DNA from: a virus | Lineage: Duplodnaviria; Heunggongvirae; Uroviricota; Caudoviricetes | Virus record (IMG/VR): IMGVR_UViG_2529292873_000004 | Coordinates: 1 to 7,213 of that record | Direction: 5' to 3' (one strand) | Length of the DNA: 7,213 nucleotides | Shown: positions 1 through 7,213 of the stretch, in pieces | How the letters are laid out: each line of letters begins with the position of its first letter | How positions within the stretch are numbered: the stretch's first letter is position 1 | Position numbers and translations under genes: made by a program | The notes under the pieces: generated by a model | What the model saw: only the letters and a program-made list of their open reading frames with translations | Told to the model about the DNA's origin: nothing | Database searches by the model: none

Positions 1-150
1 GACCCGACACTGATTCGAAAGTTACCTGACGGAGAAATACGTCGTTACAACAGACGGCAGAACATAATTTGTCGTGAGTGCCGCCAGAGCGAAGTTATGC
101 AGCGTGTGCTGGCGTTCTATCGGGGAAACTTTCAGGAGGCGGTACTGTGA
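1..150 (+). CDS. 3' end of an upstream phage gene (partial, runs off the window start); unknown product with a CxxC pair near the C-terminus
   Basis: Open frame from position 1 to TGA at 148-150 (…IICRECRQSEVMQRVLAFYRGNFQEAVL). The stop overlaps an in-frame GTG of the next gene (GTGA at 147-150). No family recognised. Confidence 0.4.
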   Translation, partial: DPTLIRKLPDGEIRRYNRRQNIICRECRQSEVMQRVLAFYRGNFQEAVL

Positions 151-206
151 GTGAATTAGCTATCAGGCTTCAATTGTCGCTGGCATTCGCATCAAAGGAG
201 AATGAG

Positions 207-791
207 ATGACCACTTTTACAAAAGAGCAGTTAATCAGTCATGTTAGTGAAAATGTAAAGGCGATGAAATTTGCAGTAAAACAGACAGCATTCAAAAATT
301 CTCTCGAGGCAATTGAGTTGGATTTAGCACTGGCCCTTGTTGCTCAGGCTTCGCTGGAAGCAGAGCCCGTGCTTTATATGAATCGATTTACCGGAAAGAC
401 ATTCTCACTGGAAGAGCAACCCGGTGCTGATAAGGAACCGGAAATATACGTGCCGCTATATGCTGCCCCGCCAGACAGCGCCGCCATGCTTCAGGCTGGA
501 AACTTTCGGGAAAATAAGGGTTCGTCAACCAATAATTTTCGGGAAATCTCGGAAACGTCAACCAACTATCCGGTAACTCTGGATGGTTGGATAAGCTGTA
601 GTGAGCGAATGCCGGATGACGGTCAGCACGTAATTATTTTATGTGATGGCGCATTCGTTCTTTATGCGCAATATCGAGACGGTGAGTTTTTTGATGTAGT
701 CCGTGATGGTGATGAATTTTTCGAAACACAGAGCCGCAATGTAACCGACTGGATGCCGCTACCAGAACCGCCGCAGGAGGTGCGCCAATGA
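207..791 (+). CDS. DUF551-like lambdoid phage protein
   Basis: ATG at 207 preceded by AAGGAG (195-200) at 6-nt spacing. C-terminal region (…ERMPDDGQHVIILCDG…WMPLPEPP) matches my recollection of the DUF551 signature. Alternative start GTG 147 (GGAGG at 133-137) would overlap the upstream stop; the table ORF 78..791 is a further upstream extension. Confidence 0.65.
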   Translation: MTTFTKEQLISHVSENVKAMKFAVKQTAFKNSLEAIELDLALALVAQASLEAEPVLYMNRFTGKTFSLEEQPGADKEPEIYVPLYAAPPDSAAMLQAGNFRENKGSSTNNFREISETSTNYPVTLDGWISCSERMPDDGQHVIILCDGAFVLYAQYRDGEFFDVVRDGDEFFETQSRNVTDWMPLPEPPQEVRQ

Positions 792-905
792 CTGGCCTGA
801 AGCATTTGCAATTACAGGCGTTGCTATAGCTATTGCTTTTTTAGTATATGTTATTTGTCGGTGGGGGTAAAAACGTTCGCCGGGATTCACACCAAAGGAG
901 GGAAT

Positions 906-1010
906 ATGTCGGATGATATTTCACTGGCAATGGAAGGTGCGCTGGCTGTTATTGCTGTTGTGGGCGTTTACTGCCTGGTTGTGTTTTTGATGGATCGACT
1001 AGGGAACTGA
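906..1010 (+). CDS. small hydrophobic membrane peptide (34 aa), unknown function
   Basis: ATG 906 preceded by AAGGAGG (895-901). Product MSDDISLAMEGALAVIAVVGVYCLVVFLMDRLGN has an acidic N-terminus and one predicted transmembrane helix. Below the ORF-track length cutoff. Confidence 0.4.
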   Translation: MSDDISLAMEGALAVIAVVGVYCLVVFLMDRLGN

Positions 1011-1018
1011 ATTCATTA

Positions 1019-1040
1019 CGATATGGGAATTCCCATATCG
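1019..1040. repeat. 22-bp perfect palindrome CGATATGGGAATTCCCATATCG
   Basis: Read directly: the two 11-nt halves are exact reverse complements (9-bp stem, AAUU loop as RNA). Lies 8 nt after the stop of the 906-1010 peptide and just upstream of the predicted hok promoter. No U-tract on either strand. Confidence 0.7.
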
Positions 1041-1051
1041 GGTAAAAACGG

Positions 1052-1080
1052 TTTGCGGTAAAGCGAGAGTTAAGTAGAAT
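1052..1080 (+). promoter_or_regulatory. putative hok mRNA promoter (-35 TTGCGG about 1053-1058, -10 TAGAAT 1075-1080)
   Basis: The -10 sits 5-7 nt upstream of position 1085, where the 5' segment complementary to the mRNA 3' end begins. No experimental start site. Confidence 0.35.
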
Positions 1081-1139
1081 TGCTGCGGGTGCTTGAGGCT
1101 ATCTGCCTCGGGCATGAACACCAACGGCAGATAGAGAAA

Positions 1140-1207
1140 AGCCCCAGTTAACATTACGCGTCCGGCAAGACGCTTAACATTAATCTGAGGCCATATCTAT
1201 GCTCTAC
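1140..1207 (-). ncRNA. sok: putative Sok-like antisense RNA
   Basis: Minus-strand promoter-like elements: -35 TTGCCT (plus 1237-1242), 17-bp spacer, -10 TAACCT (plus 1214-1219), giving a start near 1206 and a transcript antisense to the mok SD and start codon (1187-1201). 3' end not defined; no clean terminator identified. Confidence 0.3.
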
Positions 1208-1411
1208 ACACGTAGGTTAGCCTCTTACGTGCCGAAAGGCAAGGAGAAGCAGGCTATGAAGCAGCAAAAGGCGATGTTAATTGCCCTGATCGTCATCTGT
1301 TTAACCGTCATAGTGACGGCACTGGTAACGAGGAAAGACCTCTGCGAGGTACGAATCCGAACCGGCCAGACGGAGGTCGCTGTCTTCACAGCTTACGAAC
1401 CTGAGGAGTAA
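1199..1411 (+). CDS. mok: Mok-like overlapping reading frame (in-frame N-terminal extension of hok)
   Basis: ATG 1199 with GAGG (1187-1190) at 8-nt spacing, in frame with hok and sharing its stop. Same architecture as I recall for E. coli MokC/HokC. Confidence 0.5.
   Translation: MLYTRRLASYVPKGKEKQAMKQQKAMLIALIVICLTVIVTALVTRKDLCEVRIRTGQTEVAVFTAYEPEE
1256..1411 (+). CDS. hok: Hok/Gef family type I toxin (51 aa membrane peptide)
   Basis: ATG 1256 with AGGAG (1242-1246). Product MKQQKAMLIALIVICLTVIVTALVTRKDLCEVRIRTGQTEVAVFTAYEPEE: single TM helix plus the conserved TRKDLCEVRIRTGQTEVAVF core of Hok/Gef/RelF proteins; closest to HokD/RelF from memory. Confidence 0.85.
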   Translation: MKQQKAMLIALIVICLTVIVTALVTRKDLCEVRIRTGQTEVAVFTAYEPEE

Positions 1412-1478
1412 GAGACCAGGCGGGGGAGAAATCCCTCGCCACCTCTCATGTGTCAGGCATCCTTAACGCACCCGCACT

Positions 1479-1501
1479 AAACCCGCTTCGGCGGGTTTTT
1501 T
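1479..1501 (+). terminator. rho-independent terminator at the 3' end of the hok transcript
   Basis: AAACCCGC-TTCG-GCGGGTTTTTT: GC-rich stem, 4-nt loop, 6-T run. Immediately downstream of the segment (1461-1475) complementary to the mRNA 5' end. Confidence 0.6.
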
Positions 1502-1686
1502 GTTGCGCGCTGAATGCGCAGGGTGAAAAATAACCATATATTTGATTATATACACAACAAAAAATAAAAGTCATTGTACCTGCACATTAAATAATCAAAT
1601 ATACGGCGTGAAATAAATATTTTTCAGATTAATATTTTTGTCTCTATGTGGATATAACCGTTTGTACTTATAAACTCGGAGGCATC

Positions 1687-1899
1687 GTGGAAAAAATAAA
1701 GAAACTATTTAGTTGCAAATACGCAGTCATACGTCGTGATGACCTGTCAGTTATAGTCGAAATGGATTACTTCCCTGAAACCCCAAAATCAATGATGTAT
1801 CGTAATGGTCGAAAGGCAATTTTTTTACCGATGAGGGTAAGTGACATTATGGGAAATGATAAACTGCTGGATGAATTGCGAGTCAGAGCATCCTGTTAG
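1687..1899 (+). CDS. hypothetical small basic protein (70 aa), unrecognised
   Basis: GTG 1687 preceded by GGAGG (1677-1681) at 5-nt spacing (table ORF 1648..1899 is the same frame from an upstream GTG). Product VEKIKKLFSCKYAVIRRDDLSVIVEMDYFPETPKSMMYRNGRKAIFLPMRVSDIMGNDKLLDELRVRASC; no TM segment. Preceded by a strongly AT-rich stretch (about 1500-1650). Confidence 0.45.
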   Translation: MEKIKKLFSCKYAVIRRDDLSVIVEMDYFPETPKSMMYRNGRKAIFLPMRVSDIMGNDKLLDELRVRASC

Positions 1900-1914
1900 T
1901 ATTGGCATTAATTC

Positions 1915-1923
1915 TGGTATACT
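1915..1923 (+). promoter_or_regulatory. possible extended -10 element (TGgTATACT) upstream of the DUF1367 gene
   Basis: TG at 1915-1916, one spacer base, hexamer TATACT 1918-1923. No good -35 at proper spacing. Confidence 0.25.
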
Positions 1924-1970
1924 ACATAACGGGCTGAACACCCATTCTACTGCGCCAGCGGAGAACTACG

Positions 1971-2570
1971 ATGGCGCATATACAACTGGTCAAACAAACC
2001 TCTTCCGGATTACTTCTCCCGGCGACGCCGGAGAGTTGCGATTTTTTGCATCAAATCAAAATAGGTGAGTGGATACACGCAGACTTTAAGCGTGTGCGTA
2101 ACTACGCATTCCACAAGCGTTTTTTCAAACTTCTGCAACTCGGATTCGATTACTGGACTCCGGTCGGTGGGGCGATCACTCCTCGCGAACGAAAACTGGT
2201 GTCCGGTTTCGTTGATTATCTGTGTGAATCAGTAGGCCGGGAACATACGCCAGCTCTGAGCGAAGCCGCAGAGCAATATCTGAATACAGTTGCGACACGC
2301 AGAACCCGAGATACAGCATTGCTAAAGTCGTTTGAGGCTTTCCGCGAGTGGGTAACCATTCAGGCCGGATTTTACACCGAGCATATTTATCCGGACGGTA
2401 GCCGTGGGCGCAGGGCGAAATCCATCTCGTTTGCGAATATGGACGAAACCGAGTTTCAGCAGGTTTATAAATCTGTGCTGAATGTACTGTGGAACTGGAT
2501 CCTGTTCCGTAAATTTTCCTCTCCGGAACAAGTCGAAAATGTGGCCGCGCAGCTACTGGAGTTTGCGTAA
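1971..2570 (+). CDS. DUF1367-like lambdoid phage protein
   Basis: ATG 1971 with GGAG (1960-1963) at 7-nt spacing; 199 aa. The N-terminal pattern (…LPATPES.DFLHQIKIGEWIHADFKRVRNYAFHKRFFKLLQLGFDYWTP…) matches my recollection of DUF1367. Stop overlaps the next start (TAATG at 2568-2572). Confidence 0.7.
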   Translation: MAHIQLVKQTSSGLLLPATPESCDFLHQIKIGEWIHADFKRVRNYAFHKRFFKLLQLGFDYWTPVGGAITPRERKLVSGFVDYLCESVGREHTPALSEAAEQYLNTVATRRTRDTALLKSFEAFREWVTIQAGFYTEHIYPDGSRGRRAKSISFANMDETEFQQVYKSVLNVLWNWILFRKFSSPEQVENVAAQLLEFA

Positions 2571-2860
2571 TGGTGGATTTACGTAAAGCGGCGCGGGGGC
2601 AGATGTGCACCGTCAGAATTCCTGGCTACTGCAATCACGATCCGGAAACGTCTGTGCTGGCGCATTACCGACTGGCGGGAACGTGCGGAACAGCGATAAA
2701 GCCACACGATATGCAGGCAGCGATTGCCTGTAACTCATGCCACGATTTAATCGACGGGAGAGTAAAAACCAGCGATTACACCAAAGAAGAATTGCGCCTG
2801 ATGCATGCAGAAGGTGTTTTTCGCACACAAGAGATCTGGAGAAAGGACGGTTATTTATGA
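2570..2860 (+). CDS. DUF1364 / YbcO-like phage protein (cysteine-rich, putative nuclease)
   Basis: ATG 2570; 96 aa MVDLRKAARGQMCTVRIPGYCNHDPETSVLAHYRL…IACNSCHD… with the conserved Cys/His pattern I recall for E. coli DLP12 YbcO. Stop overlaps the next start (ATGA at 2857-2860). Confidence 0.7.
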   Translation: MVDLRKAARGQMCTVRIPGYCNHDPETSVLAHYRLAGTCGTAIKPHDMQAAIACNSCHDLIDGRVKTSDYTKEELRLMHAEGVFRTQEIWRKDGYL

Positions 2861-3411
2861 TTTACCCAACGAACACAGGAAAAAGCGGAGAGCACCTTCG
2901 TCTCACCACGCTGGAAAGTGTCTGGATCCAGGGGAAACTGCGTATGTGGGGGCGTTGGTCGTATATTGGCGACGGTAAGACGGGAAATATGTTCAACCAA
3001 TTACTGACCTCTAAAAAGCTGACAAAAACGGCAATTAACGAGGCGCTCCGGAGGATGAAAAAAGCAGGTCTGGACAAACCTGAACTTGAGGCTTTTTTGC
3101 GGGATATGATCAACGGCAAGCAAAAAAGCTGGCTGGTGCATTGTACCGATTCAGAGGCGTTAATAATCGACAGGGTTATTGGTGAAGTACTGGCAGGTTA
3201 TCCCGGGCTGCTCAATGTTCTGAGTCAGCGTTATGTGGGGCGGGGGATGACTAAGCGCAAAATGGCTGAACTGCTGAATGATGCACATCCGGAATGGAGT
3301 TTAAGAACCTGTGAAAGACGCATTGAGCATTGGCTAAAGGTGGCAGAATTTATTTTGTACAAACCAATGGTTATGGCTTTTGGTATAGAGAAAAAAGTTA
3401 TTGCTTTTTGA
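2857..3411 (+). CDS. putative late-gene antiterminator Q-like protein (assigned by position; not lambda-Q-like in sequence)
   Basis: ATG 2857 coupled to the upstream stop; 184 aa with a possible HTH near the C-terminus (…GMTKRKMAELLNDAHPEWSLRTCERRIEHWL…). Sits where Q lies in Stx-type phages, directly upstream of a terminator and the tRNA cluster. Table ORF 2737..3411 is an upstream extension overlapping the DUF1364 gene. Confidence 0.5.
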   Translation: MIYPTNTGKSGEHLRLTTLESVWIQGKLRMWGRWSYIGDGKTGNMFNQLLTSKKLTKTAINEALRRMKKAGLDKPELEAFLRDMINGKQKSWLVHCTDSEALIIDRVIGEVLAGYPGLLNVLSQRYVGRGMTKRKMAELLNDAHPEWSLRTCERRIEHWLKVAEFILYKPMVMAFGIEKKVIAF

Positions 3412-3487
3412 CGTAAAAACTGCTTTAATTCCGGTAAGCTTCGCAAAGCTGTATCGCGAGGCGAACCAAACGCATGAACTTTACCAG
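3401..3487 (+). promoter_or_regulatory. putative late promoter PR' / qut region (approximate)
   Basis: Candidate -35 TTGCTT (3401-3406), 17-bp spacer, -10 TTTAAT (3424-3429), preceded by an A-tract; alternative -35 TTGACG (3408-3413) lacks a good -10. Assigned mainly by position between Q and the terminator. Confidence 0.3.
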
Positions 3488-3511
3488 AACCCGCCATTGA
3501 GCGGGTTTTTT
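3488..3511 (+). terminator. rho-independent terminator (tR'-like) between Q and the tRNA cluster
   Basis: AACCCGC-CATTGA-GCGGGTTTTTT: 6-7 bp GC-rich stem, 6-nt loop, T-run 3507-3511. Confidence 0.6.
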
Positions 3512-3550
3512 ATTGCGGAATTAATTACGGACCGTTATTATTCTGCTCCC

Positions 3551-3626
3551 GGCCCTTTAGCTCAGTGGTGAGAGCGAGCGACTCATAATCGCCAGGTCGC
3601 TGGTTCAAATCCAGCAAGGGCCACCA
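3551..3626 (+). tRNA. tRNA-Ile (anticodon CAU, presumably lysidine-modified to read AUA; tRNA-Met not formally excluded)
   Basis: 76 nt GGCCCTTTAGCTCAGTGG…CTCATAA…GGTTCAAATCC…AGGGCCACCA. Perfect 7-bp acceptor stem, canonical T-arm, anticodon loop CTCATAA, encoded CCA. Very similar to E. coli ileX as I recall it; position matches ileZ of Stx phages. Confidence 0.8.
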
Positions 3627-3635
3627 TATCACATA

Positions 3636-3713
3636 CCGCCATTAGCTCATCGGGATAGAGCGTCAGCCTTCGAAGCTGGCTGTGCGGGGTTCGGAGTCCC
3701 CGATGGCGGTCCA
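3636..3713 (+). tRNA. tRNA-Arg (anticodon UCG by my fold), atypical
   Basis: 78 nt; perfect 7-bp acceptor stem CCGCCAT/ATGGCGG, D-arm GCTC…GAGC, anticodon stem TCAGC/GCTGG, loop CTTCGAA, encoded CCA. Unusual: C1:G72 start and an apparent 8-nt T-loop (TTCGGAGT). Confidence 0.6.
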
Positions 3714-3726
3714 TTATCGGTATTCT

Positions 3727-3803
3727 GCGTTGTTAGCTCAGCCGGACAGAGCAATTGCCTTCTAAGCAATCGGTCACTGGTTCGAATCCAGTACAACGCG
3801 CCA
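3727..3803 (+). tRNA. tRNA-Arg (anticodon UCU, reads AGA)
   Basis: 77 nt GCGTTGTTAGCTCAGCCGGACAGAGCAATTGCCTTCTAAGCAATCGGTCACTGGTTCGAATCCAGTACAACGCGCCA. Perfect acceptor stem, canonical T-arm, anticodon loop CTTCTAA; resembles E. coli argU. Confidence 0.85.
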
Positions 3804-4089
3804 CACCACACTTATCTGCCCTGACTCTCTTTTGCGGGCTTTTTATTACAGGAAAGACACCGGACAGTGAAATGTTAAATGCCTCACAATTCAGGTAGTC
3901 GACTGTTGCCTGACATGCTGAGCGTTTGTTAAAAAAATCCTGCATGATGAATCCCCCTGGGCGGCGGGGCATAATGACAGATGTTTGGTTGCGTATTGTA
4001 TAGGCAAGTTGCGGATTCTGTCTGGTCATTGCAGAATTCACCGGGAGGCACCCGGCATCATGCTGTATACAGAGATTAGGCATATATCC

Positions 4090-4114
4090 AGGCTCTCATC
4101 GCAGGAGCCTTTTT
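4090..4114 (+). terminator. possible weak rho-independent terminator (+ strand)
   Basis: AGGCTC-(9-nt loop)-GAGCCT followed by TTTTT (4110-4114). Confidence 0.35.
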
Positions 4115-4120
4115 ACATGC

Positions 4121-4145
4121 AAAAAAAGCCCGAGTAGGTTCGGGC
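4121..4145 (-). terminator. rho-independent terminator acting on the minus strand
   Basis: Plus strand shows A7 (4121-4127) then GCCCGA-GTAGGT-TCGGGC (4128-4145); on the minus strand this is a 6-bp GC-rich hairpin followed by U7. No T-run on the plus side. Confidence 0.5.
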
Positions 4146-4179
4146 AACAGCATGAGATACTTGCATTGTCATTTTTATC
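4121..4179 (-). ncRNA. candidate small RNA (about 60 nt) on the minus strand; hypothesis only
   Basis: Minus-strand promoter-like elements: -35 TTGCGC (plus 4210-4215), 18-bp spacer, -10 TAAAAT (plus 4186-4191), predicted start near 4179, ending at the minus-strand terminator 4121-4145. No convincing ORF. Confidence 0.2.
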
Positions 4180-4205
4180 GTGTGGATTTTAACCAGGGTT
4201 TATAA

Positions 4206-4230
4206 GGCTGCGCAACTGCGCGGCCTTTTT
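4206..4230 (+). terminator. rho-independent terminator (+ strand) about 100 nt upstream of the esterase gene
   Basis: GGCTGCGC-AACT-GCGCGGCC (8-bp stem with one G-U pair) followed by TTTTT (4226-4230). Confidence 0.5.
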
Positions 4231-4330
4231 CGTATTTCGGGCTGTAGTCTTCCTTCTGCCATTGTCCTGTAACTTCCGGACTTCAGCCTGCTCTTTATCT
4301 GATTCAGTACTATCCCGGCCGGGAGGATTC

Positions 4331-6277
4331 ATGACATTTAAACATTACGATGTGGTCAGGGCGGCATCGCCGTCAGACCTTGCTGATGCACTTGCGCAAA
4401 AAATTCGTGAAGGATGGCAACCATATGGTGGGCCGTTTTCTTCGTATACGGATGATGGCGCAGCACTTATTCAGGCGATTGTCGCAGAAGGTGATGTGAG
4501 CACACCTGTTGTGGTGAAGCCGACAGGTGGAGAAGGTGCAGTAATCAGCGCCACCAGCGACCCGGAGTATTACTTTGTTGTGGTTCTGGCAGGGCAGTCA
4601 AATGGCATGTCGTATGGTGAAGGTCTTCCGCTGCCGGAGACATATGACCGTCCGGACCCGCGTATTAAGCAACTGGCGCGCCGCAGTACGGTGACACCGG
4701 GCGGTGTCGCCTGTAAATATAACGACATCATTCCGGCGGACCATTGTCTGCATGATGTGCAGGACATGAGCCGTCTTAACCATCCGAAAGCGGACCTGTC
4801 AAAGGGGCAGTACGGAACCGTGGGGCAGGGGCTGCATATCGCCAAAAAACTGCTGCCGTTTATACCGGCGAATGCGGGTATTCTGCTGGTTCCGTGCTGT
4901 CGTGGTGGTTCAGCGTTCACCACCGGAGCTGATGGCACATACAGTGACGCGAGTGGTGCCTCGGAGAATTCAACCCGCTGGGGTGTGGACAAGCCGCTGT
5001 ATAAGGACCTTATCGGTCGAACAAAAGCAGCACTGAAGAAGAACCCGAAAAATGTGCTGTTTGCCGTGGTGTGGATGCAGGGGGAATTTGATTTTGGCGG
5101 GACGCCGGCAAATCATGCCGCACAGTTTGGTGCGCTGGTTGATAAATTCCGTGCAGACCTGACGGATATGGCAGGTCAGTGCGTTGGTGGCTCTGCTGGC
5201 GGTGTTCCCTGGATCTGTGGAGATACGACGTATTTCTGGAAGCAGAAGAACGAATCCTCGTACCAGACGGTGTACGGCAGCTACAAAAACAAAACGGAAA
5301 AGAATATCCATTTCGTACCGTTCATGACCGATGAGAACGGGGTGAATGTGCCGACGAACAAACCGGAAGAAGACCCGGACATTCCGGGTATCGGGTATTA
5401 CGGTTCGAAATGGCGTGACAGCTCAGCCACCTGGACGTCACAGGACAGGGCGAGCCATTTCAGTTCATGGGCTCGCCGCGGGATTATTTCCGACCGTCTG
5501 GCAACGGCGATTTTGCGCCATGCGGGAAGAGTGGCGCTAAACGCGGGGGCATCATCGACAGTATCAGAGGTGCGCCCGTCATCGTCTTCCGGTGCAGAAG
5601 CCACAGGCGTCACAACACTGCTCTCTTACCTTGCCAGCGAGTCAGAGGGAAGCCTGAAAGTACAGGGATGGTCAGCCAGTGGCGGCAGGGCAGAAGTGGT
5701 CAGCGATGCGGAGGGAACCGGAGGTAAGGCAGTGAAGCTGACCAAGGAAGCAGGTAAAAGCAGCTGGGTGCTGGAGTACGCCGCGGGCAACGGTGCGGCT
5801 CTGTTACAGAAAGGGGGGCAGATTCGCTGCCGCTTTAAGGTTTCGGGAGCGCTGGCTGCGAACCAGTATGTTATGGCGTTTTACTGGCCGGTATCTTCAC
5901 TGCCACAGGGCGTTGCCCTGACCGGAGACGGGGGGAATAACCTGCTGGCAGCGTTCTACATCCAGACAGATGCAAAAGACCTGAATGTGATGTACCACAA
6001 TGCGAAAGTGGCGACAAACAACCTGAAACTGGGAACCTTTGGCGCATTTGATAACGAATGGCATACGCTGGCTTTCCGCTTTGCCGGGAATAACAGCCTT
6101 CAGGTGACGCCGGTTATTGATGGTCAGGATGGCACACCGTTCACGCTGACGCAGTCACCGGTCAGTGCATTTGCGGCGGATAAACTGCATGTGACAGACA
6201 TTACCAGGAATGCGACTTACCCGGTGCTGATTGACAGCATTGCGGTGGAAGTGAACAGCACAGACACTGCGGCATGA
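4331..6277 (+). CDS. prophage NanS-p-like sialate O-acetylesterase (N-terminal DUF1737-like region, SASA/SGNH-type esterase domain, uncharacterised C-terminal domain)
   Basis: ATG 4331 with GGGAGG (4321-4326); 648 aa. Esterase motif …VVVLAGQSNGMSYGEG… as in NanS/YjhS-type enzymes. Size and position (downstream of Q and tRNAs, upstream of the holin) match the large esterase ORF of Stx2 phages. Table ORF 4262..6277 is an upstream extension without an RBS. Confidence 0.8.
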   Translation: MTFKHYDVVRAASPSDLADALAQKIREGWQPYGGPFSSYTDDGAALIQAIVAEGDVSTPVVVKPTGGEGAVISATSDPEYYFVVVLAGQSNGMSYGEGLPLPETYDRPDPRIKQLARRSTVTPGGVACKYNDIIPADHCLHDVQDMSRLNHPKADLSKGQYGTVGQGLHIAKKLLPFIPANAGILLVPCCRGGSAFTTGADGTYSDASGASENSTRWGVDKPLYKDLIGRTKAALKKNPKNVLFAVVWMQGEFDFGGTPANHAAQFGALVDKFRADLTDMAGQCVGGSAGGVPWICGDTTYFWKQKNESSYQTVYGSYKNKTEKNIHFVPFMTDENGVNVPTNKPEEDPDIPGIGYYGSKWRDSSATWTSQDRASHFSSWARRGIISDRLATAILRHAGRVALNAGASSTVSEVRPSSSSGAEATGVTTLLSYLASESEGSLKVQGWSASGGRAEVVSDAEGTGGKAVKLTKEAGKSSWVLEYAAGNGAALLQKGGQIRCRFKVSGALAANQYVMAFYWPVSSLPQGVALTGDGGNNLLAAFYIQTDAKDLNVMYHNAKVATNNLKLGTFGAFDNEWHTLAFRFAGNNSLQVTPVIDGQDGTPFTLTQSPVSAFAADKLHVTDITRNATYPVLIDSIAVEVNSTDTAA

Positions 6278-6278
6278 T

Positions 6279-6314
6279 AAAAAAACCGCCAGCGACAGGA
6301 ATGGACGCTGGCGG
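6279..6314 (-). terminator. rho-independent terminator oriented for minus-strand transcription, immediately after the esterase stop
   Basis: Plus strand shows A7 (6279-6285) then CCGCCAGCG-(11-nt loop)-CGCTGGCGG (6286-6314); on the minus strand this is a 9-bp perfect stem followed by U7. Downstream on the plus strand is TGGTAATA, so it is weak in the + direction. Confidence 0.5.
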
Positions 6315-6413
6315 TGGTAATACCTATGGAGAAAAAATAAAGGAACGATACTTTCGTGCTCTGGTTTTTTAAATGAAAACAGTTCTTATTGTCAACAATA
6401 ACGGAAAGAAATT

Positions 6414-6593
6414 ATGACATTTCTGAACCAGTTAATGCTGTACTTCTGTACGGTGGTCTGTGTGCTGTATCTCCTTTCGGGTGGGTACAGGGCCATGCGT
6501 GACTTCTGGCGCAGACAGATTGACAAAAGGGCCGCTGAGAAAATCAGCGCCGGTCAGTCAGCCGGAAGCAAACCCGAAGAGCCGCTCATTTAG
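6414..6593 (+). CDS. hypothetical small membrane protein (59 aa)
   Basis: ATG 6414 (weak GGAAAG upstream) to TAG 6591-6593. Product MTFLNQLMLYFCTVVCVLYLLSGGYRAMRDFWRRQIDKRAAEKISAGQSAGSKPEEPLI: one N-terminal TM helix and a basic tail. Below the table cutoff; overlaps the 5' part of table ORF 6460..6906 in another frame. Confidence 0.35.
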   Translation: MTFLNQLMLYFCTVVCVLYLLSGGYRAMRDFWRRQIDKRAAEKISAGQSAGSKPEEPLI

Positions 6594-6633
6594 CGGCAAC
6601 TTTCTTAATCACACCTTTCGACGAGAAAATCCC

Positions 6634-6906
6634 ATGTCAGAAATTACATCCCTGGTCACTGCAGAGGCAGTGAAGGAAGTCCTGCGCTCTGAAGAAGTCC
6701 TGAGCGCACTGAAACAAAAACTTCGCCATAACCTGGAAGCGCGTCTTGATGCAGAGGTTGATGCCATTCTGGATGAGCTGCTTGGTGTACAGGCAGAGCC
6801 ACCGACTGAAGCGGGAGATACCACCGCAGAGAGCGGTGAAGTTCAGCCTGAATCACCGGTCGCCGATGCGACTGAACCTCAACCCGAATCGGTCATGATG
6901 CTGTAA
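6634..6906 (+). CDS. hypothetical small acidic protein (90 aa)
   Basis: In-frame ATG 6634 of table ORF 6460..6906, weak SD (GAGAAA). Product [51 protein letters not shown]… then an E/D/T/P-rich tail. Family not recognised. Confidence 0.45.
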
Positions 6907-6917
6907 CGGGGAGTCAG

Positions 6918-6947
6918 GGCCATCAGTAAACAGCTGCTGGCCTTTTT
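6918..6947 (+). terminator. possible rho-independent terminator upstream of the holin gene
   Basis: GGCCATCAG-(7-nt loop)-CTGCTGGCC (9-bp stem with one mismatch) followed by TTTTT (6943-6947). Confidence 0.4.
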
Positions 6948-6982
6948 CATGTTGTGAGCTTCCGGATAACGGGAGACGGGGT

Positions 6983-7198
6983 ATGTACCAGATGGAAAAA
7001 ATCACAACAGGTGTGTCATACACCACGTCAGCGGTGGGGACGGGATACTGGTTACTGCAGCTGCTGGACAAAGTCTCTCCGTCCCAGTGGGTGGCAATAG
7101 GCGTGCTGGGGAGTCTGCTGTTTGGTCTGCTGACGTACCTGACGAACCTGTATTTCAAAATCAGAGAAGACCGGCGTAAGGCGGCGCGGGGAGAGTAG
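6983..7198 (+). CDS. S: class I holin (lambdoid S-type) with dual-start motif
   Basis: ATG 6983 with GGGAGACGGGG upstream; 71 aa [71 protein letters not shown]. Hydrophobic segments plus a charged C-terminal tail; two start codons (Met1, Met4) as in holin/antiholin pairs. Matches my recollection of the 933W-type S holin. Confidence 0.85.
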
Positions 7199-7201
7199 AC
7201 G

Positions 7202-7213
7202 ATGAACCATGAA
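7202..7213 (+). CDS. 5' end of the next late gene (partial; presumably endolysin R by position)
   Basis: ATG 7202, 3 nt after the holin stop (7196-7198), reading MNHE… before the window ends. Assignment by synteny only. Confidence 0.3.

Follow-up and report, generated by a model that had tools for sequence, protein, structure and literature searches.

We examined a 7,213-nucleotide (nt) stretch of DNA from a tailed-phage record (Caudoviricetes; IMG/VR record IMGVR_UViG_2529292873_000004, positions 1 to 7,213), hereafter called the window, which is the early-right and late-regulatory region of an Escherichia coli lambdoid prophage. Between a hok/sok toxin locus and a conserved DUF1367 gene, the window holds an AT-rich spacer followed by an open reading frame (ORF) for a 70-amino-acid (aa) protein at 1687–1899, which an initial annotation based on the letters of the sequence had singled out as the element that it could least explain. 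We assign this protein to the family of GfoA, an experimentally characterised antirepressor of the prophage Gifsy-1 (PMC3121763), and conclude that it is probably a small antirepressor of a GfoR-like, non-cleavable repressor, encoded by a gene that has no direct LexA control. The features of the locus, in window coordinates, are the following.

207–791: DUF551 gene.
1087–1261, plus strand: hok/sok regulatory RNA region, Rfam 'sok' (RF01794, 111.7 bits), the left neighbour.
1256–1411, plus strand: coding sequence of the type I toxin hokD (Pfam HOK_GEF, 1.2e-23; hokD in RefSeq).
1479–1498, plus strand: intrinsic terminator of hok, with an 8-bp stem containing five GC pairs and a T-run (inverted repeat I6).
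1503–1686, plus strand: AT-rich spacer, GC 0.31, with a homologous spacer in a group of related loci at 57% protein identity (the 57% group).
1534–1606, no strand assigned: inverted repeat I1, with arms at 1534–1552 and 1588–1606.
1574–1602, plus strand: weak candidate promoter TTGTAC-17 nt-AAATAT, read from the sequence and its alignment to the 57% group.
1678–1682, plus strand: Shine–Dalgarno sequence GGAGG, 4 nt ahead of the GTG, with GGAG kept in both allele groups.
1687–1899, plus strand: coding sequence of the 70-aa predicted small antirepressor of the GfoA family, GTG start.
1821–1827, plus strand: run of seven T (T7) within the coding sequence.
1931–1970, plus strand: right boundary of the cassette, a conserved junction (GGGCTGAAC...CGGAGAA) defined by alignment to the Qin prophage of E. 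coli K-12.
1971–2570, plus strand: DUF1367 gene (Pfam DUF1367, 2.3e-98), right neighbour and positional anchor.
2570–2860: YbcO/DUF1364 gene.
2860–3411: DUF1133 gene, a Q-like antiterminator.

The reading frame proposed initially, with GGAGG at 1678–1682, GTG at 1687 and a stop codon ending at 1899, was upheld, and RefSeq carries exactly the same 70 aa as a hypothetical protein (WP_001356604.1). A mechanical ORF list had offered an 83-aa form beginning at GTG 1648. We rejected it in favour of the 70-aa reading because 81 of 81 related loci, the 57% group among them, retain GTG 1687 and the preceding GGAG, and because family members elsewhere start about 10 residues ahead of the conserved core. 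The frame is intact, together with its GTG and Shine–Dalgarno sequence, in 69 of 70 E. coli-type loci (24 of 25 distinct alleles) and in 11 of 11 loci of the 57% group. Among the 25 near-identical alleles the ratio of nonsynonymous to synonymous substitution rates (dN/dS) was 0.39–0.49, with the two shifted frames at 0.66 and 0.78; measured against the 57% group it was 0.16. The initial annotation had accepted that a frame not conserved in related prophages would count against it; the dN/dS over the deeper split and the start codon retained throughout point the other way, and the ORF is a real, conserved coding gene under purifying selection.

The protein is also as basic, cysteine-containing and free of transmembrane segments as first described (pI 9.3; 14 Lys and Arg versus 10 Asp and Glu; 2 Cys; maximum Kyte–Doolittle value over 19 residues (KD19) 0.53). 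Neither its cysteines nor its charge characterises the family: many alleles, the commonest among them, have Ser in place of C10, C70 is confined to the E. coli type, and the pI of relatives ranges from 4.9 to 7.9. An AlphaFold2 model (mean predicted local distance difference test (pLDDT) score 83.6) consists of a short helix, four beta-strands and a C-terminal helix. The gene is present in 173 of 5,426 complete E. coli genomes (~3%), many of them Shiga toxin-producing E. coli (STEC). No public database among the sources checked labels the 70-aa protein as an antirepressor, and it is otherwise called hypothetical. Truncated 45-aa calls, running from the internal Met26 (window 1762–1899), are labelled 'bacteriocin' in NCBI records, and some 70-aa members are named 'Bacteriophage cohesive ends' in UniRef; both labels look spurious.

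Scans of the ORF against Pfam, NCBIfam and PADLOC (E up to 0.1) gave no match, and the family profile likewise had none among PDB sequences; PHROGs returned phrog_1813, of 'unknown function'. A word-indexed protein search retrieved only E. coli and Shigella proteins. With tblastn against phage genomes, relatives of 28–55% identity were found in Salmonella, Citrobacter, Klebsiella and Aeromonas phages; every one directly precedes a nin-type block (DUF1367 in four), and DinI lies directly upstream in four of the five annotated records. The homologue from Salmonella phage SPN3UB, used as query, recovered 97 clusters spread over Enterobacterales, none of which has a Pfam domain or any name but 'hypothetical', and a profile search of 1.84 billion representative proteins yielded only 43 matches, nearly all of them short and single-domain. 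The usual order in 102 further loci was DinI, family member, nin-type genes (RusA, YdfU/DUF968 or DUF1367, NinG) and Q.

Gifsy-1 and Gifsy-2 were not found in the phage collection; GfoA and its Gifsy-2 counterpart GftA were rebuilt in IMG/VR contigs from published cloning primers (PMC3121763), which gave an 82-aa GfoA with a TTG start and a 73-aa GftA with a GTG start. Comparison of the family alignment with GfoA in hhalign returned a probability of 98.4% (E 7e-15, 71 columns). To avoid circularity, we also built a profile from SPN3UB-type sequences only, leaving out window-type sequences and GfoA; with it, the window protein reached 45.0 bits (E 4e-16) and GfoA 43.5 bits, against at most 4.1 bits for 200 shuffles of each. 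A profile of window-type sequences only reached GfoA at 11.5 bits (E 1e-5; shuffles at most 5.7), and pairwise BLASTP between the window protein and GfoA gave E 3e-4. Homology to GftA was also considered and was undetectable (−0.4 bits in the profile test). The statement that the protein could not be assigned to a family therefore did not survive the hhalign and independent-profile results, and since a match to a well-characterised phage family was what the initial annotation had named as overturning its own reading, the ORF also loses its status as the least explained element.

Position and start codon point to the same family. Gifsy-type loci run DinI, GfoA or GftA, DUF1367, with DUF1367 directly downstream in 51 of 57 and 21 of 22 loci, respectively, as in the published operon order dinI-antirepressor-irsA (PMC3121763). 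The DUF1367 gene of the window is the counterpart of the 'irsA' that follows gfoA and gftA in the Gifsy prophages (PHROG 'NinB/Orf recombination mediator'). Because the gene after gfoA and gftA is a DUF1367 gene 54% identical to that of the window, which begins 71 nt beyond the end of the ORF, the ORF occupies the exact gfoA position. A non-ATG start is common to the window ORF (GTG), gftA (GUG) and gfoA (TTG). Family membership rests on sequence, position, type of start codon and, as described below, partner repressor. Tight linkage to dinI on one side and to DUF1367 on the other, seen in most relatives, could also be read as a sign that the protein, jointly with the adjacent gene products, has its role in DNA damage or recombination, for example as a modulator of RecA, DinI or the NinB-like DUF1367 protein, and does not act on a repressor. 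In Gifsy prophages, however, non-polar deletions of dinI or irsA left induction unaffected and the small ORF alone was sufficient (PMC3121763), and the window version has no dinI and still keeps the ORF; we give such a role hardly any credence.

The input to the gene sets the window apart from most of its relatives. About 39 nt upstream of dinI, a LexA box with a perfect core is present in 53 of 53 GfoA-type, 19 of 19 GftA-type and 70 of 72 SPN3UB-type loci, whereas it was found in 0 of 63 window-type loci when 700 nt upstream were searched. Within the window, no LexA site with up to two core mismatches occurs in 1400–1700, and the box search ruled out a LexA box in the spacer. There is no dinI in the window either, the left neighbour being hokD with its terminator. 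The hok/sok locus, terminator and AT-rich spacer stand where relatives have the LexA-box promoter and dinI, and expression is therefore not directly wired to LexA. The gene thus combines homology over the whole domain, small size with a non-canonical start, and a slot upstream of DUF1367 outside the immunity region, all as in GfoA-type antirepressors, with two departures: it is not the second gene of a dinI-headed operon, and it is not under direct LexA control. It is accordingly a member of the protein family in a variant regulatory context, and such a LexA-less context is already known from Rem, an antirepressor of K-12 Qin.

In many relatives, 1.3–2.6 kb of cargo lies between the antirepressor gene and the nin block (for example L063:4464-6359; loci L023, L032, L053, L074, L107 and others also have large gaps). 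The cargo in L063 consists of a cloacin/colicin-E3-type bacteriocin (PF03515, 1e-61; Cytotoxic PF09000, 3e-31) and an immunity protein (PF03513, 2e-38). It lies directly 3' of the LexA-box, dinI and antirepressor genes and is therefore a bacteriocin in an SOS-controlled prophage operon.

Identity between the window and K-12 Qin runs through hokD and the terminator, ends in the T-run (window ~1502) and resumes at GGGCTGAAC (window 1931); between these boundaries K-12 Qin carries rem, which is unrelated in sequence to the window ORF. Other E. coli prophages with the same flanks have either a Rem-like ORF or ~463 nt of ORF-less AT-rich DNA, and nearly every window-type or Rem-type locus has Hok on its left. 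By this comparison of gene content across E. coli prophages, 1503–1930 behaves as a replaceable mosaic cassette, in keeping with the inserted module suspected at the outset.

Two loci illustrate the slot without the gene: in L011:754-1219 and L012:757-1219, ~463 nt of GC 0.37 lie between hokD and DUF1367 with no antirepressor-like ORF, and the slot there is either empty or holds something unrecognised. The ~40-nt junction at window 1931–1975 (GGGCTGAAC.CCC...CGGAGAA..CGATGGC) is common to K-12 Qin despite the differing next gene (DUF1367 versus ydfU), and may represent a boundary or linker of the mosaic, or else a translation-initiation region common to both.

Rem (b1561; PF27490), which acts against DicA in Qin (Ragunathan & Vanderpool 2023, PMC10448788), was found by iterated searches starting from GfoA and derepresses the DicA-controlled dicBp promoter 165-fold (PMC10448788). 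Homology of the window protein to Rem, suspected from a short motif resemblance, was rejected: BLASTP produced no alignment and hhalign gave probabilities of 1.3% and 0.7%. PF27490 matches are precomputed for Rem relatives and for none of the window-family proteins. The structure model of Rem is weak (pLDDT 59), with a predicted element order of helix, four to five strands, helix. Only two bridging or chimeric sequences, P0143 and P0149, join the window family to Rem. P0143 resembles the GfoA-type family in its N-terminal half (profile E 6e-10), and over the C-terminal 44 residues it matches Rem with 97.7% probability; P0149 matches Rem at 72.9%. Judged by its sequence, P0143 may be a recombinant between two antirepressor types or may reflect deep common ancestry.

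To characterise the partner, we surveyed 160 IMG/VR loci for a repressor within 10 kb. In the closest relative of the window, 97.5% identical overall and 100% over 1440–1970, a divergent repressor/cro-like pair lies 5.5 kb upstream. The repressor of this pair, WP_000410105.1, 139 aa long, has a helix-turn-helix (HTH) domain only (HTH_3), with no peptidase domain, and aligns end to end with DicA. Its identity to the repressors of GfoA-type loci (GfoR-like) is 34–37% (E ~1e-21) versus 29% to DicA; its C-terminal LLEL(F/Y)xQLPxxEQ...RLKExDE segment is ~50% identical to GfoR-like repressors, and the Gifsy-2-type repressor gave a local match only. A short (~130–155 aa), HTH-only repressor of the GfoR/DicA type, as expected for a GfoA-type antirepressor, is thus found in the relatives, outside the window. 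Window-type antirepressors occur with the GfoR-like HTH-only family in 45 of the 48 loci that have a repressor, and all loci of the 57% group (11 of 11) carry that family or a diverged form of it; Rem-type antirepressors, for their part, occur with DicA-family repressors in 59 of 59 loci. The window-type pairing spans 29 distinct intervening architectures of 3.6–7.9 kb, which argues against plain clonal linkage, although the loci lack phylogenetic independence.

The AT-richness of 1500–1650 relative to its flanks, remarked on in the initial annotation, was confirmed by a window-based GC profile: GC is 0.291 at 1500–1650, 0.310 at 1503–1686 and 0.35 at 1503–1930, against a mean of 0.499 (sd 0.064) over all 150-nt windows. 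The minimum 150-nt GC of the whole 7.2 kb (0.253) falls at 1521–1670, and every 150-nt window with GC < 0.34 starts within 1491–1611. The spacer of the 57% group is homologous to that of the window and has conserved blocks, and so spacer and ORF are inherited together. The promoter and regulatory sites that control the antirepressor gene presumably lie in the spacer, and silencing by H-NS is plausible for DNA of 28–31% GC.

Several candidate control elements within the spacer were considered. Two weak promoter candidates lie below the threshold of our consensus scan, TTGTAC-17-AAATAT (1574–1602) and TTAATA-18-TATAAC (1629–1658). The 57% group retains the TTG of the first, as well as the GTCATTG block around it; a promoter role for this element is speculative. 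The inverted repeat I1 has arms of 19 nt each, 89% complementary and 35 nt apart, and scored 13 versus a maximum of 12 in 300 shuffles (fold z = −2.87); it is not evidently conserved in the 57% group. No significant RNA hairpin masks the Shine–Dalgarno sequence or start codon: z was +0.7 and +0.8 for the window and −1.4 and −0.4 for the 57% group. Regulation of the gene by the prophage's own repressor, as in the case of the antirepressor FsoA, found no support, since comparison of the spacer with the immunity region of the closest relative revealed no operator-like similarity above chance.

The initial annotation had leaned, by implication, towards a horizontally acquired moron, host-directed or anti-phage in function (toxin, defence or exclusion) and expressed from an H-NS-silenced promoter. 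The low GC of the 1503–1930 segment (0.35) and its cassette-like boundaries fit such an element, and it adjoins another moron, hok/sok. A toxic or anti-phage moron nevertheless drew no support from PADLOC, Pfam or NCBIfam, and the protein has no transmembrane segment. Moreover, the characterised member of the family regulates the phage's own repressor, and the gene keeps its position across genera within a regulatory architecture, unlike variable cargo, and co-varies with the repressor type. We consider the moron explanation very improbable.

Among characterised antirepressors, GfoA shares with the window protein its family, its small size (82 versus 70 aa), a non-ATG start, the slot upstream of DUF1367/irsA outside the immunity region and an association with a short, non-cleavable GfoR-like repressor. 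The two differ in that the window protein is only ~30% identical and basic (pI 9.3 versus 7.9), with a function that is predicted, and in that its gene lacks dinI and the LexA box (0 of 63 versus 53 of 53), having hok/sok, a terminator and the AT-rich spacer instead. With Rem it shares the slot (hokD terminator, gene, junction, next gene), the LexA-less, hok-linked arrangement, about the same size and, as far as the low-confidence Rem model allows, the predicted order of structural elements; it differs from Rem in having no detectable sequence similarity and a GfoR-like rather than a DicA-family partner. GftA of Gifsy-2 resembles it in its role as a small antirepressor (predicted for the window protein), in its dinI-to-DUF1367 slot and in its GTG start (PMC3121763), but has no detectable sequence similarity, and the GftA partner GtgR is closer to DicA.

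A precedent for an antirepressor outside LexA control is FsoA of Fels-1 (PMC3121763). Binding of the repressor, its removal from DNA and sufficiency for induction upon expression are established only for Rem (PMC10448788) and for the Salmonella proteins GfoA, GftA and FsoA (PMC3121763); GfoR and GfoA associate as an A2B2 complex. The same logic, in which a trans-acting protein binds and inactivates a non-cleavable repressor, holds for Tum of coliphage 186 and for AntC of N15 (cited in PMC3121763), and Tum carries a DinI-like half (PMC3121763) that echoes the linkage of dinI and antirepressor in relatives of the window gene. By their descriptions, Tum and AntC are set apart as larger, LexA-controlled proteins of other phage groups.

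A number of observations weigh against a functional antirepressor at this locus. Identity to GfoA is low (~30% locally). The LexA box and dinI, which tie the Gifsy antirepressors to induction, are both absent from the window, and the consensus scan found no sigma-70 site matching at least 9 of 12 positions on the plus strand in 1500–1690. The partner repressor is deduced from relatives because the window itself contains no repressor gene. Other repressor types occur in 3 of the 48 window-type loci, and in 8 further loci no repressor of either type was detectable within 10 kb; co-occurrence could also be partly due to shared ancestry. Fold neighbours in the PDB and BFVD were not informative on function. 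Finally, frameshifts at the T7 run (1821–1827) have produced truncated alleles ending in ...KAIFFTDE in other genomes (P0012, P0013, P0017), and the gene is therefore dispensable in some genomes; some strains thus have it inactivated or, possibly, phase-variable.

Part of this evidence would suit a GfoA-family homologue that has ceased to function as an inducer. It would be a decaying or idle remnant in largely defective prophages, severed from its SOS promoter when hok/sok replaced dinI and now either unexpressed or ineffective. Loss of the LexA box and dinI, the lack of a strong promoter in the scan and the truncated alleles at the T7 run all fit such a remnant, as do the only moderate purifying selection among near-identical alleles (0.39–0.49) and the existence of hok-to-DUF1367 slots without any ORF. 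Set against these are the near-universal retention of an intact frame with its GTG and Shine–Dalgarno sequence (69 of 70 E. coli-type loci and 11 of 11 of the 57% group), a dN/dS of 0.16 over the deeper split, a spacer conserved along with the ORF and the pairing with one repressor family across 29 architectures. Rem, whose gene is likewise hok-linked and without LexA control, shows full activity upon expression (PMC10448788). We regard an idle remnant as unlikely, and retain as probable a GfoA-family antirepressor of a GfoR-like, non-cleavable repressor that lacks direct LexA control.

By homology, such an antirepressor would bind its repressor and induce the prophage. On the analogy of GfoA and GfhA of Salmonella Gifsy-1 and Gifsy-3, the protein, once made, would bind a short, non-cleavable HTH repressor of the GfoR/DicA type and take it off its operators, so that the early promoters would be derepressed. 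Derepression would lead to prophage induction or, in a defective prophage, would turn on the early genes. The gene itself maps beyond the immunity region, in the conserved slot that immediately precedes the DUF1367 (irsA-like) gene. Classical members are transcribed with dinI from a LexA-repressed promoter, and the E. coli/STEC branch has hok/sok, a strong terminator and the 185-nt AT-rich spacer in its place.

A possible but decidedly tentative extension of this scheme is that the antirepressor of the E. coli/STEC branch has been rewired from SOS to a different input read by the AT-rich spacer. Candidate inputs are relief of nucleoid-protein silencing, a temperature or host-niche signal, and read-through from hok. 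If true, rewiring would provide a route to induction that does not depend on DNA damage. It could also permit cross-induction among the many GfoR/DicA-type prophages of a polylysogenic STEC strain, given that Gifsy antirepressors can act in trans on repressors other than their own.

Assignment to the GfoA family fills an annotation gap, as relatives are common in Enterobacterales prophages and have no Pfam or NCBIfam model, and it identifies the probable switch for induction in a set of STEC prophages with repressors that RecA cannot cleave. Together with Rem, the window gene would be a second, independent case of an antirepressor that has lost LexA control, and the question raised for Rem, namely which signal turns on such antirepressors, becomes testable by comparison. 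Two lineages of antirepressor co-vary with two of repressor, which suggests the hypothesis that the C-terminal domain of the repressor sets specificity; the pairing predicts that the window protein and GfoA would act on GfoR and the repressor type of window-like loci, and Rem on DicA. To a specialist familiar with the Gifsy and Rem work, the assignment would come as no great surprise.

The best full-length match to the window among complete E. coli genomes was strain 2013C-4974 (97.5% identical), and the segment 1440–1970 is 100% identical in this strain and in many STEC genomes. The reference enterohaemorrhagic E. coli strains Sakai and EDL933 were both absent from the 60 cassette-carrying matches listed. 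Downstream of the Q-like gene are three tRNAs, the small RNAs (sRNAs) STnc100 and AgvB, a nanS-like esterase gene and lysis genes. At 3551–4180 this layout comprises tRNA-Ile/Arg/Arg, then STnc100 (165.7 bits), an AgvB-like sRNA on the minus strand that is borderline (56.2 bits versus a gathering score of 56) and the nanS-like esterase; it is the late-region layout of Stx phages, yet without stx genes. A further record with the order hok, ORF, DUF1367, DUF1364 is L002 (PP818812.1, 'Actinobacillus phage vB_Apl-pPE4'), which is 97.6% identical to the window segment; it was deposited as a phage of Actinobacillus pleuropneumoniae, a host attribution that looks doubtful.

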